From NCBI RefSeq assembly GCF_003334355.1, contig NZ_QOWP01000012.1: 64,000 nucleotides of DNA. The stretch is one strand, 5' to 3'. A model generated the notes under the pieces. The model saw only the letters and a list, made by a program, of their open reading frames with translations. It ran no database searches and was not told the DNA's origin. Made by a program: the position numbers and the translations under genes. Positions within the stretch are counted from its first letter, which is position 1. Each line of letters starts with the position of its first letter. This document shows positions 1,373-57,734 of this stretch, piece by piece. This DNA comes from Escherichia coli (lineage in GTDB: Bacteria > Pseudomonadota > Gammaproteobacteria > Enterobacterales > Enterobacteriaceae).

Positions 1373-3025
1373 ATGTTTTGTGTGCAATGTGAACAAACTA
1401 TCCGTACTCCGGCAGGAAACGGCTGCTCATACGCGCAGGGGATGTGTGGTAAAACGGCGGAAACTTCTGACCTTCAGGATTTACTCATCGCGGCGCTGCA
1501 AGGGCTTTCTGCCTGGGCGGTAAAAGCGCGTGAATACGGCATCATCAACCACGATGTTGACAGCTTCGCGCCACGTGCCTTTTTCTCAACCCTGACCAAC
1601 GTTAACTTCGATTCTCCGCGTATTGTCGGCTACGCTCGTGAAGCGATTGCCCTGCGCGAGGCGCTGAAAGCGCAATGCCTGGCTGTAGATGCCAACGCGC
1701 GCGTCGATAACCCGATGGCTGACCTGCAACTGGTGAGCGACGATCTCGGCGAGCTGCAACGTCAGGCAGCAGAATTTACCCCTAACAAAGATAAAGCGGC
1801 GATTGGCGAAAACATTCTCGGCCTGCGTCTGCTGTGCCTGTATGGCCTGAAAGGTGCGGCGGCCTATATGGAACACGCGCATGTTCTCGGTCAATACGAC
1901 AACGATATTTATGCCCAGTACCATAAAATCATGGCGTGGCTGGGGACCTGGCCTGCCGATATGAACGCGCTTCTTGAGTGTTCAATGGAAATCGGCCAGA
2001 TGAACTTCAAAGTGATGAGCATTCTGGATGCAGGCGAAACCGGTAAATACGGTCACCCGACGCCAACCCAGGTCAACGTCAAAGCGACGGCGGGTAAATG
2101 CATTCTGATTTCCGGTCACGATCTCAAAGATCTCTACAACCTGCTGGAACAGACCGAAGGCACGGGCGTTAATGTCTACACCCACGGCGAAATGCTGCCT
2201 GCGCATGGCTACCCGGAGCTGCGTAAATTCAAGCATCTGGTCGGTAACTACGGCAGCGGCTGGCAGAATCAGCAAGTGGAGTTCGCTCGTTTCCCTGGCC
2301 CCATCGTGATGACCTCGAACTGCATCATCGACCCAACCGTAGGCGCTTATGACGATCGTATCTGGACCCGCAGCATTGTTGGCTGGCCTGGCGTGCGTCA
2401 TCTGGACGGTGATGATTTCTCTGCGGTTATCACCCAGGCGCAACAGATGGCAGGCTTCCCGTACAGCGAAATTCCGCACCTTATCACCGTGGGTTTTGGT
2501 CGCCAGACGCTGCTTGGCGCTGCTGATACGCTGATTGATCTGGTGAGCCGTGAAAAACTGCGTCATATCTTCCTGCTTGGTGGCTGTGACGGCGCACGCG
2601 GCGAGCGCCACTACTTCACCGATTTCGCCACCAGCGTGCCGGATGACTGCCTGATCCTGACCCTCGCCTGTGGTAAATATCGCTTTAACAAACTTGAGTT
2701 TGGCGATATCGAAGGTCTGCCGCGTCTGGTAGATGCAGGTCAATGTAACGATGCTTACTCAGCGATTATTCTGGCTGTCACTCTGGCAGAGAAACTGGGC
2801 TGTGGTGTGAACGATCTGCCGCTGTCGCTGGTGCTCTCCTGGTTTGAACAGAAAGCGATCGTCATTCTGCTGACGCTGCTTTCTCTGGGCGTGAAAAATA
2901 TCGTCACCGGCCCGACTGCACCTGGTTTCCTGACACCAGACCTGCTGGCGGTGCTGAACGAGAAATTCGGCCTGCGTTCTATCACCACTGTTGAAGAAGA
3001 CATGAAGCAACTGTTGAGCGCGTAA
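1373..3025 (+). CDS. hcp: Hybrid-cluster protein (hydroxylamine reductase / NO-stress protein)
   Basis: 550-aa ORF from the ATG at 1373; N-terminus MFCVQCEQT with a Cys-rich cluster-binding motif; followed directly by hcr. Confidence 0.95.
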
Positions 3026-3036
3026 GGAGTTTGTCG

Positions 3037-4005
3037 ATGACGATGCCAACGAATCAATGCCCGTGGCGGATGCAGGTTCATCACATTACGCAAGAAACGC
3101 CGGATGTGTGGACGATTTCCCTGATTTGCCACGATTACTACCCATATCGCGCCGGGCAATATGCACTGGTCAGCGTGCGAAACTCAGCGGAAACGCTGCG
3201 TGCTTACACCATTTCCTCCACGCCAGGCGTGAGTGAATATATCACCCTGACCGTGCGGCGGATTGATGACGGTGTCGGCTCCCAGTGGCTGACGCGCGAT
3301 GTAAAACGCGGTGATTATCTCTGGCTTTCGGACGCGATGGGGGAATTTACCTGCGACGATAAAGCAGAAGATAAATTCCTGTTGCTGGCGGCAGGCTGCG
3401 GCGTCACGCCGATTATGTCGATGCGTCGCTGGCTGGCGAAGAACTGTCCACAGGCCGATGTACAGGTGATCTACAACGTGCGCACGCCGCAGGATGTTAT
3501 TTTCGCCGATGAGTGGCGTAACTATCCGGTAACGCTGGTGGCGGAAAATAACGTTACCGAAGGCTTTATCGCTGGTCGTCTCACTCGCGAACTGCTGACT
3601 CGCGTTCCTGACTTAGCTTCACGTACCGTGATGACCTGCGGCCCGGCTCCGTATATGGATTGGGTAGAGCAGGAAGTGAAAGCGCTCGGCGTGACGCGTT
3701 TCTTTAAAGAGAAATTCTTCACCCCAGTAGCGGAAGCAGCGACCAGCGGTCTGAAATTCACCAAACTGCAACCGGCACGAGAATTTTACGCCCCGGTTGG
3801 CACCACGCTACTGGAGGCGCTGGAAAGCAATAACGTTCCGGTTGTCGCCGCCTGCCGTGCGGGTGTTTGCGGCTGCTGTAAGACAAAAGTGGTTTCCGGT
3901 GAATATACGGTGAGCAGCACAATGACGCTGACCGACGCCGAAATCGCTGAAGGTTACGTACTGGCCTGCTCCTGCCATCCGCAGGGGGATTTGGTTCTCG
4001 CATAA
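3037..4005 (+). CDS. hcr: NADH oxidoreductase for Hcp (FAD and 2Fe-2S ferredoxin-reductase-like)
   Basis: 322 aa from the ATG at 3037 with TAAGGAG 7 nt upstream; C-terminal CRAGVCGCC 2Fe-2S motif; starts 12 nt after the hcp stop. Confidence 0.93.
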   Translation: MTMPTNQCPWRMQVHHITQETPDVWTISLICHDYYPYRAGQYALVSVRNSAETLRAYTISSTPGVSEYITLTVRRIDDGVGSQWLTRDVKRGDYLWLSDAMGEFTCDDKAEDKFLLLAAGCGVTPIMSMRRWLAKNCPQADVQVIYNVRTPQDVIFADEWRNYPVTLVAENNVTEGFIAGRLTRELLTRVPDLASRTVMTCGPAPYMDWVEQEVKALGVTRFFKEKFFTPVAEAATSGLKFTKLQPAREFYAPVGTTLLEALESNNVPVVAACRAGVCGCCKTKVVSGEYTVSSTMTLTDAEIAEGYVLACSCHPQGDLVLA

Positions 4006-8335: not shown

Positions 8336-8433
8336 TCGACAAAACCTGCGTTATTCTTTCATGTTTCCCATTGCATCATGGGGGAAATCACGGAAGAATG
8401 CGCACGTTATTTTCTCAACAACAGTGGATTGAT

Positions 8434-9447
8434 ATGAAGGTACTGGTTACCGGCGCCACCAGCGGCTTAGGTCGAAACGCGGTAGAGTTTTTATGCCAGA
8501 AAGGCATCAGCGTGCGAGCGACCGGTCGCAACGAGGCAATGGGCAAATTGCTGGAAAAAATGGGCGCAGAGTTTGTTCCGGCGGATCTGACCGAGCTGGT
8601 TTCATCACAAGCTAAAGTGATGCTCGCGGGCATTGATACGCTGTGGCACTGCTCCAGCTTTACCTCACCCTGGGGGACACAACAGGCTTTCGATCTGGCT
8701 AACGTTCGCGCCACTCGCCGCCTGGGTGAATGGGCTGTCGCCTGGGGTGTGCGTAACTTTATTCATATCTCTTCCCCCTCCCTGTACTTCGATTATCACC
8801 ACCATCGCGATATTAAAGAAGATTTTCGCCCTCACCGCTTCGCCAACGAGTTTGCCCGCAGCAAAGCAGCCAGCGAAGAAGTGATCAATATGCTTTCGCA
8901 GGCGAATCCACAAACGCGCTTTACTATTCTGCGCCCACAAAGTCTGTTCGGACCGCACGATAAAGTCTTTATTCCCCGTCTGGCGCATATGATGCACCAC
9001 TACGGCAGTATTCTGTTACCGCATGGCGGCAGTGCGCTGGTCGATATGACCTACTATGAAAATGCCGTGCACGCAATGTGGCTGGCAAGCCAGGAAGCCT
9101 GCGATAAGCTACCTTCCGGGCGTGTGTACAACATCACCAACGGCGAGCATCGCACACTGCGCAGCATCGTGCAGAAGCTGATCGACGAGTTGAATATTGA
9201 CTGTCGTATTCGTTCCGTCCCCTACCCGATGCTGGATATGATCGCCCGCAGCATGGAGCGTTTAGGCCGCAAGTCAGCAAAAGAGCCGCCGCTGACCCAC
9301 TACGGCGTCTCCAAGTTGAATTTTGACTTTACGCTGGATATTACGCGTGCGCAGGAAGAGTTAGGTTATCAGCCGGTCATCACCCTGGATGAAGGTATCG
9401 AGAAAACTGCCGCCTGGCTACGCGACCACGGAAAACTGCCGCGCTAA
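8434..9447 (+). CDS. ybjS: Uncharacterised NAD-dependent epimerase/dehydratase-family protein
   Basis: 337 aa from the ATG at 8434; VTGATSGLG Rossmann motif; called by synteny. Confidence 0.85.
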
Positions 9448-10274
9448 TCCTGCCCGTATTTCTCCAGCAATGCTTCGGCAATCGCCTGAGTTTCTGCATC
9501 CGCTTCGCCGTTATATAACGTCGGGCGGAAATGCATCTGGAATGCCATAATCACGCGCCGCTGCTCGCGCGGTGTCATATCAGGTTTAACGTCATAACCG
9601 TAGCGCGCCAAAAGCTCCAGCAATGACGCGGTATCTACCGGTGTGTGCGGCGCGCGCCCGGCAAGGTAAAAGTTAACCCGCTGCGCATCCGGCCAGGCAC
9701 CAATCCCCTGCTGCGCCAGTTGCTGCCAGGGAAATAATGGCCCCGGATCGTCTTTGCGCTGCGGTGCGATATCCGCATGTGCCACTACGTTTTCCGGCTT
9801 GATGTGATAACGGGCAATAATATCTTTCGCCAGTGGAATAAGCGCCTGAATCTGTGCCGGTTCAAACGGGGCAAAATATTTCACTCCGGCCGATTTTTGC
9901 CAGCCACGGTTTTCCAGCTCAATGCCAATAGAGGTGTCGTTAAGGCGCGTTGCCCCGCGCCAGGCGCTAATCCCCGCATGCCAGGCCAGTTCTTGTTCCG
10001 GCACCAGTTGCCAGATGCGCGGTTTACCGTTGTATCGCGGTGGTACCGCAGGGACCAGATAATGCGAGCTGACCTGCTTATCGGTCAGTGTCGCCAGCGA
10101 GCTATCAAAATCATCTGCGGTGTAGTGGATCACCAGCACTTTAATGCGCGGATACGCCGCCTGCGCCTGGCGTCGGGTATCAAGCTGATATCCCTCTTTC
10201 TCGACAATGCCTTTTTCGCCTGCACACCCTGCCAATAACAGAGCGGCAGCGACCAGCCAGAAGACTCTTCTCAT
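9444..10274 (-). CDS. amiD: N-acetylmuramoyl-L-alanine amidase AmiD, outer-membrane lipoprotein
   Basis: 276 aa; signal peptide with lipobox LLAGC; amidase_2 fold. Its stop overlaps the ybjS stop in the tetranucleotide CTAA. Confidence 0.9.
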
Positions 10275-14344: not shown

Positions 14345-14442
14345 GGGTTTTGTAGGTCTGATAAGACGCGCCAGCGTCGCATCAGACATCAGCACGGTGC
14401 CTGTGCCGGATGCGGCGGGGACGCCTTATCCGGCCTACATAG
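14345..14442. repeat. REP/BIME cluster (two inverted REP units) downstream of artM
   Basis: GTAGGTCTGATAAGACGCGCCAGCGTCGCATCAGAC and GCCGGATGCGGCGGGGACGCCTTATCCGGCCTAC match the enterobacterial REP consensus. Confidence 0.85.
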
Positions 14443-27053: not shown

Positions 27054-27165
27054 AACTGAAGTTGCCCTGAAAATGAAATTTTTTTGCACAACCGCAGAAC
27101 TTTTCCGCAGGGCATCAGTCTTAATTAGTGCCACTGCTTTTCTTTGATGTCCCCATTTTGTGGAG

Positions 27166-27209
27166 CCCATCAACCCCGCCATTTCGGTTCAAGGTTGATG
27201 GGTTTTTTG
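27166..27209 (+). terminator. Intrinsic terminator downstream of ybjL
   Basis: CCCATCAACC...GGTTGATGGG 10-bp stem followed by TTTTTTG. Confidence 0.55.
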
Positions 27210-27227
27210 TTATCTAAAATTTATCTA

Positions 27228-34460: not shown

Positions 34461-34706
34461 AAATGCCACCCGAGTATCCATTCAAAAAAAATACGTTATA
34501 TCGCCGTATGATAAGTTCGGTGATTAATAACGCACACACAAACTTAAAGAAACCGTAAGTTGGTAAAGTTTTTAAAGTTTATGCAATATCCTGCCGCTTC
34601 GCTGCTTCTGGTGTCATTTTTTTGCCAGCTGTTGCTTAAAAGTTAACTTTACTTCACCATCGGAGTCCTGTTCAGCCTGTGGCTGCCTGTCGGAAAAGGG
34701 GTGAGT

Positions 34707-35333
34707 ATGATTACGCTGTGGGGTCGGAATAATTCAACTAACGTAAAAAAAGTATTGCTGACGCTCGAAGAACTGGAACTACCTTATGAGCAAATTCTCG
34801 CGGGCCGTGAGTTTGGGATAAATCACGATGCTGATTTTCTGGCGATGAACCCTAACGGGCTGGTGCCGTTGTTGCGTGACGACGAAAGTGATCTCATTCT
34901 TTGGGAATCAAACGCCATTGTCCGCTATCTGGCGGCACAGTACGGGCAAAAACGCCTGTGGATCGACTCACCGGCACGTCGTGCGGAAGCGGAAAAATGG
35001 ATGGACTGGGCAAACCAGACGCTCAGTAATGCTCATCGCGGGATCCTGATGGGATTAGTCAGAACACCACCGGAAGAGCGCGATCAGGCCGCCATTGATG
35101 CCAGTTGCAAAGAGTGCGACGCCCTGTTTGCCCTGCTCGATGCGGAACTGGCAAAAGTAAAATGGTTCTCTGGCGACGAGTTTGGTGTGGGCGATATCGC
35201 TATCGCACCGTTCATCTACAATTTGTTTAACGTTGGCCTGACCTGGACACCGCGTCCAAATCTGCAACGCTGGTATCAGCAACTCACTGAACGCCCCGCA
35301 GTGCGCAAAGTGGTGATGATTCCCGTTAGCTAA
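34707..35333 (+). CDS. gstB: Glutathione S-transferase GstB (YliJ)
   Basis: 208 aa from the ATG at 34707; GST N- and C-domain pattern. Confidence 0.9.
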
Positions 35334-36445
35334 TTGCGTGGGCTAACTTTAAGTAATTCCCCACTGGACTCGTCGGTGAGAACGTATAAATAACCGTCGG
35401 GTCCAGTGCGAACATCACGAATTCGCTGCCCTCTGTCCGTTAAAATACGGCCATCTTCTGTCACTTTGTCGCCGTTGACGCTCATCACAATGACATCTTT
35501 ATCTTTCAGCGCGCCAATAAATAATTTTTGCTGCCACTGGGGGAATTTATCGCTGTTATAGAAGGCCATGCCGCTCACAGCGGGCGAATCTTTCCAGTAA
35601 AAAACAGGTTGCTCGGTCCCGGCGACGATCTCCCCTTTCGCTTCCGGTATCTTAAAGCCTGAATAGTTGATTCCCCAGGTTGCCAGCGGCCAGCCGTAGT
35701 TTTTGCCTTTTTGCGGGATATTAATTTCATCACCACCGCGCGGGCCATGTTCATTCAGCCACAGTGCATTACTCCACGGATTCATCGCCATTCCTTGCGG
35801 ATTACGAATGCCATAAGACCAGATCTCGGCGCGCGCACCGGATTCCTTTATAAAAGGATTATCATCCGGGATTTCGCCCTGGTCGGTCAGACGCACCAGT
35901 TTGCCCTGTAATTTATCCAGATCCTGCGCCGTCGGGCGCTGATTGTTTTCGCCCAGAGCAATAAAAAGATAACCTTTACCGTCGAATACCAGCCGCCCGC
36001 CAAAATGGTTGCCGGTAGACAGTTTTGGCATCTGGCGAAAGACGGTGCGGAAGTCGGTCACTTTTGAGAGATCATCACTTAAGCGGCCATAACCCACAGC
36101 AGTTCCGGCTTTGCCATCATCGCCAACTTCGGAATAACTTAACCAGATGCGGCGAGACTGAGCAAAATCAGGCGCTAAAACCACGTCCAGCAGGCCGCCC
36201 TGCCCGTGCGCCCAAACGTCCGGCACTCCGGAAAGCGGCGCAGATAATCCTTTTCCTGCTTGCCAGTGACGCAACTCGCCGCCGCGCAGAGTGATTAACA
36301 TACCGTGATTATCGGGTAAAAAGGCCAGTGACCAGGGATGGTCGAGTTTGTCTTGCAGTACTTCGACATTTACCGTTGCAGGAGCCGCCCAGAGAGCGGA
36401 AGAAAGACAAATAAGGGGCACAAGGAAAAAGAATGGTCGATGCAT
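35330..36445 (-). CDS. yliI: Soluble aldose sugar dehydrogenase (PQQ-dependent beta-propeller)
   Basis: 371 aa; signal peptide; stop overlaps the gstB stop in CTAA. Confidence 0.9.
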
Positions 36446-50807: not shown

Positions 50808-50817
50808 TTGCCACCTC

Positions 50818-50900
50818 CAGGCCTGATAAGACGCGACAAGCGTCGCATCAGGCATTTGCTCCAGACGCCAGATGCGGCGTGAACGCCTTATCTGGCCTAC
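50818..50900. repeat. REP/BIME cluster between convergent moeB and fsaA
   Basis: GCCTGATAAGACGCGACAAGCGTCGCATCAGGC and CAGATGCGGCGTGAACGCCTTATCTGGCCTAC. Confidence 0.85.
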
Positions 50901-50985
50901 GGTTCGGGCACAGATTTCCAAGCGCGGCAGGCATCGGTGCACTCCGCCACGTCATCAGCAATTTATGAGGATGCAGAACGTCCGG

Positions 50986-57572: not shown

Positions 57573-57676
57573 TAATGCCTGATGCGGCGTTAACGCCTTA
57601 TCCGGCCTACAAAGTCCTGCAGATTCAATATATTGCAGGTACTGCGTAGGCCTGATAAGCGTAGCGCATCAGGCTA
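57573..57676. repeat. REP/BIME cluster between ybiU and ybiT
   Basis: GCCTGATGCGGCGTTAACGCCTTATCCGGCCTAC and GTAGGCCTGATAAGCGTAGCGCATCAGGC, with an internal CCTGCA...TGCAGG hairpin. Confidence 0.85.
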
Positions 57677-57734
57677 TTTTGCATTTGTCATCAGCCGCCG
57701 TCACCCCGACAGTATCGGGGTGACGGATAATCAC

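Follow-up and report, generated by a model that had tools for sequence, protein, structure and literature searches.

Two convergent gene pairs of Escherichia coli sharing their stop codons in a CTAA tetramer: very probably ordinary four-nucleotide overlaps with Rho-terminated read-through

When two convergent genes end inside the same four bases, one may ask whether the arrangement is a regulatory device, through which each transcript interferes with the gene it runs into, or simply one of the ordinary states in which facing genes come to lie. The stretch of Escherichia coli DNA considered here (64,000 nucleotides of contig NZ_QOWP01000012.1, hereafter the window) raises this question twice, with ybjS and amiD at junction 1, and with gstB and yliI at junction 2. 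A first-pass annotation claimed that both pairs share their stops in a CTAA tetranucleotide, and at each of the two places the sequence, the open reading frames and the gene annotation agree with it. The identity of the four genes is given by the PGAP annotation of near-identical E. coli genomes and by the curated record of strain MG1655.

The letters at window positions 9440-9449 are cgcgCTAAtc, and those at 35330-35339 are CTAAttgcgt (Table 1). Mechanically called open reading frames meet at the same places, with 8371..9447 (+) facing 9444..10274 (-) at junction 1, and 34701..35333 (+) facing 35330..36445 (-) at junction 2; the longest frame of ybjS begins at 8371, and PGAP places its start at 8434. 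Both plus-strand genes, ybjS and gstB, stop with TAA, and both minus-strand genes, amiD and yliI, stop with TAG, which appears as CTA on the plus strand, so that what the two genes of a pair have in common is limited to both stops and the wobble position of either gene's final sense codon. MG1655, when reverse-complemented, is collinear with the window (window position x lies at 915187 - x in MG1655), and at both loci the two are 99.5-99.6% identical and gapless. In the curated MG1655 record, amiD (904913..905743, +) and ybjS (905740..906753, -) overlap by 4 nt, as do yliI (878742..879857, +) and gstB (879854..880480, -). At its other end, amiD starts within the stop of ybjQ in a classic same-strand 4-nt overlap, ATGA (10271-10274, -), and is therefore overlapped at both ends; similar co-directional 4-nt overlaps are annotated at potH/potI and mntR/ybiR.

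Table 1. Positions of the genes, shared tetramers, hairpin and published Rho regions at the two junctions.
Feature	Position in window	Strand	Remarks
ybjS CDS	8434..9447	+	NAD-dependent epimerase/dehydratase family, 337 aa, tail ...GKLPR*; PGAP start
amiD CDS	9444..10274	-	N-acetylmuramoyl-L-alanine amidase, 276 aa, tail ...KYGQD*
gstB CDS	34707..35333	+	glutathione S-transferase, 208 aa, tail ...MIPVS*
yliI CDS	35330..36445	-	PQQ-dependent aldose sugar dehydrogenase, 371 aa, tail ...VSPRN*
CTAA tetramer, junction 1	9444..9447		ybjS TAA 9445-9447 (+); amiD TAG 9446 down to 9444 (-)
CTAA tetramer, junction 2	35330..35333		gstB TAA 35331-35333 (+); yliI TAG 35332 down to 35330 (-)
Hairpin	35362..35408	+	imperfect inverted repeat (stem 11+4 bp, loop 15 nt) lacking a U tract; 29 nt past gstB stop, within 3' end of yliI
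Rho region, amiD direction	9069 (MG1655 906118, +)	-	375 nt past amiD stop, antisense in ybjS, score 4.27 (Adams et al. 2021)
Rho region, ybjS direction	10098 (MG1655 905089, -)	+	651 nt past ybjS stop, antisense in amiD, score 3.90 (Adams et al. 2021)
Rho region, gstB direction	35781 (MG1655 879406, -)	+	448 nt past gstB stop, antisense in yliI, score 3.76 (Adams et al. 2021)

Regarding how unusual such junctions are, the window holds 490 YTAR tetramers, and the two CTAA sites are the only ones at which open frames of at least 100 codons converge, which marks them as real gene junctions. Their length is the smallest possible one, since the codon sequences do not allow two stops on opposite strands to overlap by 1-3 nt. 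Overlaps of this tail-to-tail kind are reportedly treated by Fukuda (2003), Johnson and Chisholm (2004) and Kingsford (2007) as well, and the last of these is said to contain a model of convergent offsets. That both sites are CTAA and not TTAG reflects only that the TAA-ending gene lies on the plus strand of the window in both cases, as the two tetramers are reverse complements of each other. In the survey of Lillo & Krakauer 2007 (PMC2174442), CTAA, TTAA, CTAG and TTAG figure as the four tetramers that permit such an overlap; E. coli has 58 convergent overlaps, and 672 of the 1890 convergent overlaps found across 58 genomes are of at most 4 nt, leaving 1218 without them. According to the same survey, convergent overlappers are enriched in TAG stops (19% vs 8%).

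A direct rate was obtained from four arbitrary 50-kb pieces of MG1655 (200 kb) under its current annotation. These contain four annotated 4-nt overlaps among about 27 convergent CDS pairs (~15%), namely sieB/ydaF (TTAG) and ydbJ/hslJ, yedP/dgcQ and xseA/yfgJ (all TTAA), together with one convergent overlap of 12 nt, yedA/vsr, and one of the pieces has two 4-nt overlaps of its own. At 1 per 50 kb, 1.28 are expected in 64 kb and the probability of finding two or more is 0.37, so two junctions in the window are no more than chance would bring. A mild clustering had appeared with an earlier rate of ~20 sites per genome, taken from the 2007 literature, and it vanished with the direct 200-kb rate, which is about four times higher.

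The history of the junctions can be followed in related bacteria. Within E. coli both are almost invariant: the 2.1 kb around junction 1 are matched in 5424 of 5426 complete genomes, the 60-nt junctions themselves in 5418 and 5421 of the same 5426, and the annotated 4-nt overlap is still present in the three most divergent E. coli genomes examined. Across Enterobacteriaceae, one genome per species was taken for junction 1, which gave 80 loci encoding YbjS, 56 of them with amiD convergent downstream. The 4-nt overlap (the -4 state) occurs in 24 of these 56 (14 TTAA, 8 CTAA, 1 TTAG and 1 CTAG), a spacer of 0 to +7 nt in 16 and a longer spacer in the other 16, and no overlap of more than 4 nt was found among the 56 loci. 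CTAA is found in all Escherichia representatives, and TTAA in most Citrobacter and in the representatives of both Salmonella subspecies; Klebsiella has either CTAA or TTAA; and the spacer is +2 or +3 in Kluyvera, +7 in Raoultella and 0 in Lelliottia. In four Citrobacter species (L010, L011, L014 and L021; ~3505-3630), a BIME-like REP doublet of ~100 nt sits exactly at the ybjS/amiD tetramer, flanked by a duplicated GCGTTA[A/G] in such a way that each gene keeps its own stop, and the 4-nt overlap has become a spacer of 100-113 nt with hairpins, while the sister species L012 and L015 keep the uninterrupted GCGTTAACC.

Junction 2 shows a comparable range. The CTAA overlap of 4 nt is found in E. 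coli, Salmonella bongori, S. enterica, C. koseri and a genome labelled C. freundii; E. fergusonii has TAA-agca-TCA, that is, a +4 spacer; Cronobacter has TGA|TCA, with a spacer of 0; and in C. sedlakii and Intestinirhabdus another neighbour stands at this position. The tails of YliI vary in sequence and in length (SPRN*, SPRP*, SPRA*, SPAATR*) and all run up to the same backstop, and such varied tails with a single end point are what would be expected if the gstB stop acts as the backstop. Downstream of gstB in S. enterica (contig L086, locus 2624-3311), yliI consists of three short fragments of 57, 52 and 51 aa, which suggests a pseudogene on this contig; in S. bongori (L087), the gene is intact with 373 aa, and the CTAA junction is present in both.

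Taken as a whole, both junctions are very probably ordinary 4-nt tail-to-tail overlaps, the zero-spacer state of convergent genes, with read-through that is terminated by Rho. Where the TAA or TAG of a plus-strand gene is preceded by C or T, the opposite strand carries TAG or TAA shifted by one base, and a facing gene in that frame ends exactly at the tetramer. The overlap carries no protein-coding cost, because only the stops and the last-codon wobble bases are shared. The comparative pattern suggests that deletion bias and small indels move junctions into and out of the -4 state, and point changes in the stops and the insertion of REP sequences may be further routes of entry and exit. The sequences compared are consistent with junctions that are either pressed into tightness or free to lose their spacer, and with the avoidance of overlaps at the expense of amino acids. 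The -4 state would then be a cost-free resting point. A TAR stop with a pyrimidine before it offers one of the three antisense frames a stop that is already in place. Against this explanation count the near-invariance of the junctions in E. coli and the sharing of the -4 state by several genera, which could reflect selection rather than inertia, as well as the class-level statistics on excludons, a missing Rho entry for yliI transcripts in gstB, and the lack of evident rut sites, all of which are taken up below.

The same explanation has consequences for transcription. Intergenic DNA is absent at both junctions, so any terminator must sit inside the partner gene, and Lillo & Krakauer 2007 (PMC2174442) state the same for convergent overlappers in general, with rho-independent terminators predicted for only 23 of 116 such genes. 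Consensus scans for intrinsic terminators past the four stops remained at the level of shuffled sequences or chance. The first-pass view that no room is left for a terminator between the genes is thus borne out, in that there is no spacer and none of the four stops is followed by a structure resembling an intrinsic terminator, and for these two reasons each RNA polymerase is expected to run on into the partner gene. The read-through RNA would be untranslated antisense RNA, which Rho would end a few hundred nucleotides in.

For the Rho step, published data from K-12 are available in Supplementary file 2 of Adams et al. 2021 (PMC7815308), which compares DirectRNA-seq with and without bicyclomycin at the coarse resolution of 800-nt windows; the order of its columns was verified by recomputing the Rho scores from the read counts. 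For three directions out of the four, bicyclomycin-sensitive regions are reported within the partner (Table 1), and they lie more than 50 nt past the upstream stop, which is where Rho that loads on untranslated RNA would be expected to act. The same data have no entry for yliI transcripts entering gstB, where Rho termination may be supposed, and the curated Term-seq 3'-end tables of that study contain no entry under the names of the four genes. With these regions, and with both pairs listed in the published excludome, the further claim that the transcripts run antisense into the partner gene finds backing in published data. The read counts at both loci are low (between tens and a few hundred in 800 nt; PMC7815308), and interference between sense and antisense transcription would probably be a small side effect at such low expression of these genes. 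Mutual interference, which the first-pass annotation had suggested, is not needed to explain the arrangement.

Read-through of this kind is not confined to the two pairs. Over MG1655 863-908 kb, within the window, Adams et al. 2021 (PMC7815308) also report Rho regions antisense to fsaA, dacC, deoR, mdfA and ybjT. Three of the convergent pairs concerned, deoR/dacC, ybjH/mdfA and moeB/fsaA, have spacers of 40-87 nt, with a strong hairpin in the two shortest, and antisense Rho regions lie in the partner there too. Running on into the facing gene, with sensitivity to bicyclomycin, thus seems to be the rule throughout the window and no speciality of overlapping pairs, and, since convergent pairs with spacers have antisense Rho regions as well, the overlap is not what sets the two pairs apart. 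A search of the four 3' extensions for a rut-like C-rich, G-poor tract found no clear one, and their C/G ratios over 800 nt (1.13, 0.86, 1.22 and 1.13) lie within the window background of 1.01 +/- 0.16.

An Rfam scan of the whole window found no RNA families at either junction. Elsewhere it placed the sRNA RybB (105 bits) at 27133-27211 (+), in the convergent spacer of ybjL and rcdA, and Adams et al. 2021 (PMC7815308) class the RybB 3' end as "primary, antisense" to rcdA. The moeB/fsa spacer measures 178 nt in the window (50808-50985) vs 87 nt in strain 120899, and the extra ~74 nt (~50846-50919) partly overlap an element of REP origin with a match to Rfam naRNA4 (50820-50897); naRNA4 is matched a second time at 14355-14435, between artM and artJ. 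In strain 120899, moreover, an IS621 element (IS110-like) has inserted between ybiU and ybiT (L002 25532-26808). The window (57600-57700) lacks it, and its empty site consists of a REP sequence, which scores as Rfam ES036 too (57611-57653).

Among the other explanations, the one that survives best, and is still improbable, holds that the overlaps are selected regulatory devices, i.e., convergent excludons, in which obligatory antisense read-through lets only one partner of each pair, ybjS or amiD and gstB or yliI, be expressed at a time through polymerase collision and cleavage of the duplex by RNase III. Both pairs do belong to the published E. coli excludome: Table 1 of the ExcludonFinder study (Sanmartin et al. 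2025, PMC12288877) has yliI-gstB and amiD-ybjS among its 165 convergent pairs, a list that requires 50% or more of the 58 RNA-seq samples of MG1655 to show overlapping transcripts, along with mdfA-ybjH and fsaA-moeB, which are also in the window. At the level of the class, excludon pairs show co-expression in single cells less often than other neighbours do, and their synteny is higher (PMC12288877), and the -4 state is shared across Escherichia, Salmonella and Citrobacter. However, a coverage criterion must call any expressed pair of overlapping CDSs, so the listing is automatic and adds no functional evidence, and its authors state that p19 capture of dsRNA is not feasible as a validation of convergent excludons (PMC12288877). 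In addition, the partners have no evident functional link, read counts are low, and the junction is easily lost, as seen from the spacers of E. fergusonii (+4), Kluyvera (+2/+3) and Raoultella (+7) and from the REP insertion of some Citrobacter, whereas S. enterica has kept CTAA despite a fragmented yliI.

A stronger form of this proposal, in which the stop overlap has been selected in Escherichia, Salmonella and Citrobacter and read-through turns each pair into a bistable either/or switch, a true excludon, is slightly less credible again. If it held, the Citrobacter REP insertion and the +4 spacer of E. fergusonii would mark lineages that uncoupled the partners, and the two loci, with the Citrobacter REP variants, would offer a convenient natural experiment on regulation by stop-overlap excludons.

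Next comes termination driven by collision, as Ju et al. 2019 describe it, in which hairpins of the coding regions, such as that at 35362-35408, would act as pause elements and set overlapping 3' ends in both directions. This proposal draws on the stable hairpin close behind the gstB stop and on Ju/Wang et al., who describe Rho-independent, non-canonical bidirectional terminators between hundreds of E. coli convergent pairs. The hairpin region is the only one of the four downstream regions to beat its shuffles: fold z values for the 150-nt 3' extensions are -2.3 (-2.28) for gstB, -1.2 for yliI, -0.9 for ybjS and +1.4 for amiD, and junction 1, with the last two values, has no comparable hairpin. 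A weak 5-bp hairpin at 9426..9409 (-) was considered and rejected, as it lies outside the minimum free energy fold of a region that folds worse than shuffled sequences. As for the gstB-side stem, its outer 4-5 pairs are specific to E. coli and its core is broken in Salmonella and Cronobacter with no compensatory changes, so that the stem probably just follows from the coding sequence. What is found at the CTAA junctions also differs from an overlapping bidirectional terminator in other respects: no spacer holds a hairpin there, curated sharp Term-seq ends are absent from all four genes (Adams et al. 2021), and in place of Rho independence there is sensitivity to bicyclomycin in three directions of the four, the published Rho scores being 3.8-4.3 and the regions 375-651 nt away from the junction. 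Taken with these observations, collision-driven termination is very unlikely here.

There is next to no chance, finally, that either overlap is an annotation artefact, with one gene per pair unreal or ending elsewhere, a reading for which no support was found beyond the fact that ybjS is functionally uncharacterised, and which is effectively refuted already by the points that follow. A stop is fixed by its reading frame, so that the stops do not depend on the annotation, and the first-pass suggestion that re-annotation might move one of them is unrealistic. In the constructs that were crystallised, AmiD (2bh7 and related entries) extends to its final encoded residue, D276, and YliI (2g8s) to R370 of 371, that is, at the C-terminus and one residue short of it; YbjS has 85-99% identity and a constant length across 80 Enterobacteriaceae species; and GstB homologues of 208 aa are widespread, with the full length conserved across Enterobacteriaceae. 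These constructs and this conservation show that both partners of each pair are real protein-coding genes that end at the stops in question, on which PGAP and the MG1655 curators agree.

The importance of the two junctions as ordinary overlaps is accordingly low: they illustrate a rule of bacterial genome compaction, with both pairs already catalogued, and the reliance of spacer-less convergent genes on Rho inside the partner gene is likewise already documented.

It remains to set the two junctions beside the systems they resemble. With the bidirectional terminators of Ju, Li & Liu 2019 they have in common that the genes converge, but they lack a spacer and a hairpin of that kind, and their termination is Rho-dependent and distal. 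Typical of that system are instead five other pairs of the window, grxA/ybjM, ybjH/mdfA, deoR/dacC, rimO/dgcI and ldtB/ybiR, whose spacers of 29-58 nt are each nearly filled by one strong hairpin. With the convergent excludons of MG1655 (PMC12288877) they share overlapping transcription units and a place in the list, yet the defining feature, mutually exclusive expression with processing by RNase III, is only putative for both, the published single-cell statistics describing the class, and the inclusion of both pairs follows automatically from the overlap of their CDSs. The likeness to termination by Rho of RNA that is antisense or not translated (Peters et al. 2012; Adams et al. 2021, PMC7815308) is closer, with bicyclomycin-sensitive regions antisense in ybjS, amiD and yliI at more than 50 nt past the upstream stop, and the differences are the lack of a yliI-in-gstB entry and of a clear C-rich, G-poor tract. 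Closest of all is the class of 4-nt convergent overlaps described by Lillo & Krakauer 2007, in which opposite-strand stops lie in the same four bases, [CT]TA[AG]: both junctions have such a YTAR tetramer, common to one TAA and one TAG, and no difference from the class is seen, the CTAA of the window being TTAG when read from the other strand. Both are members of a common and long-described class, and both pairs were already known.
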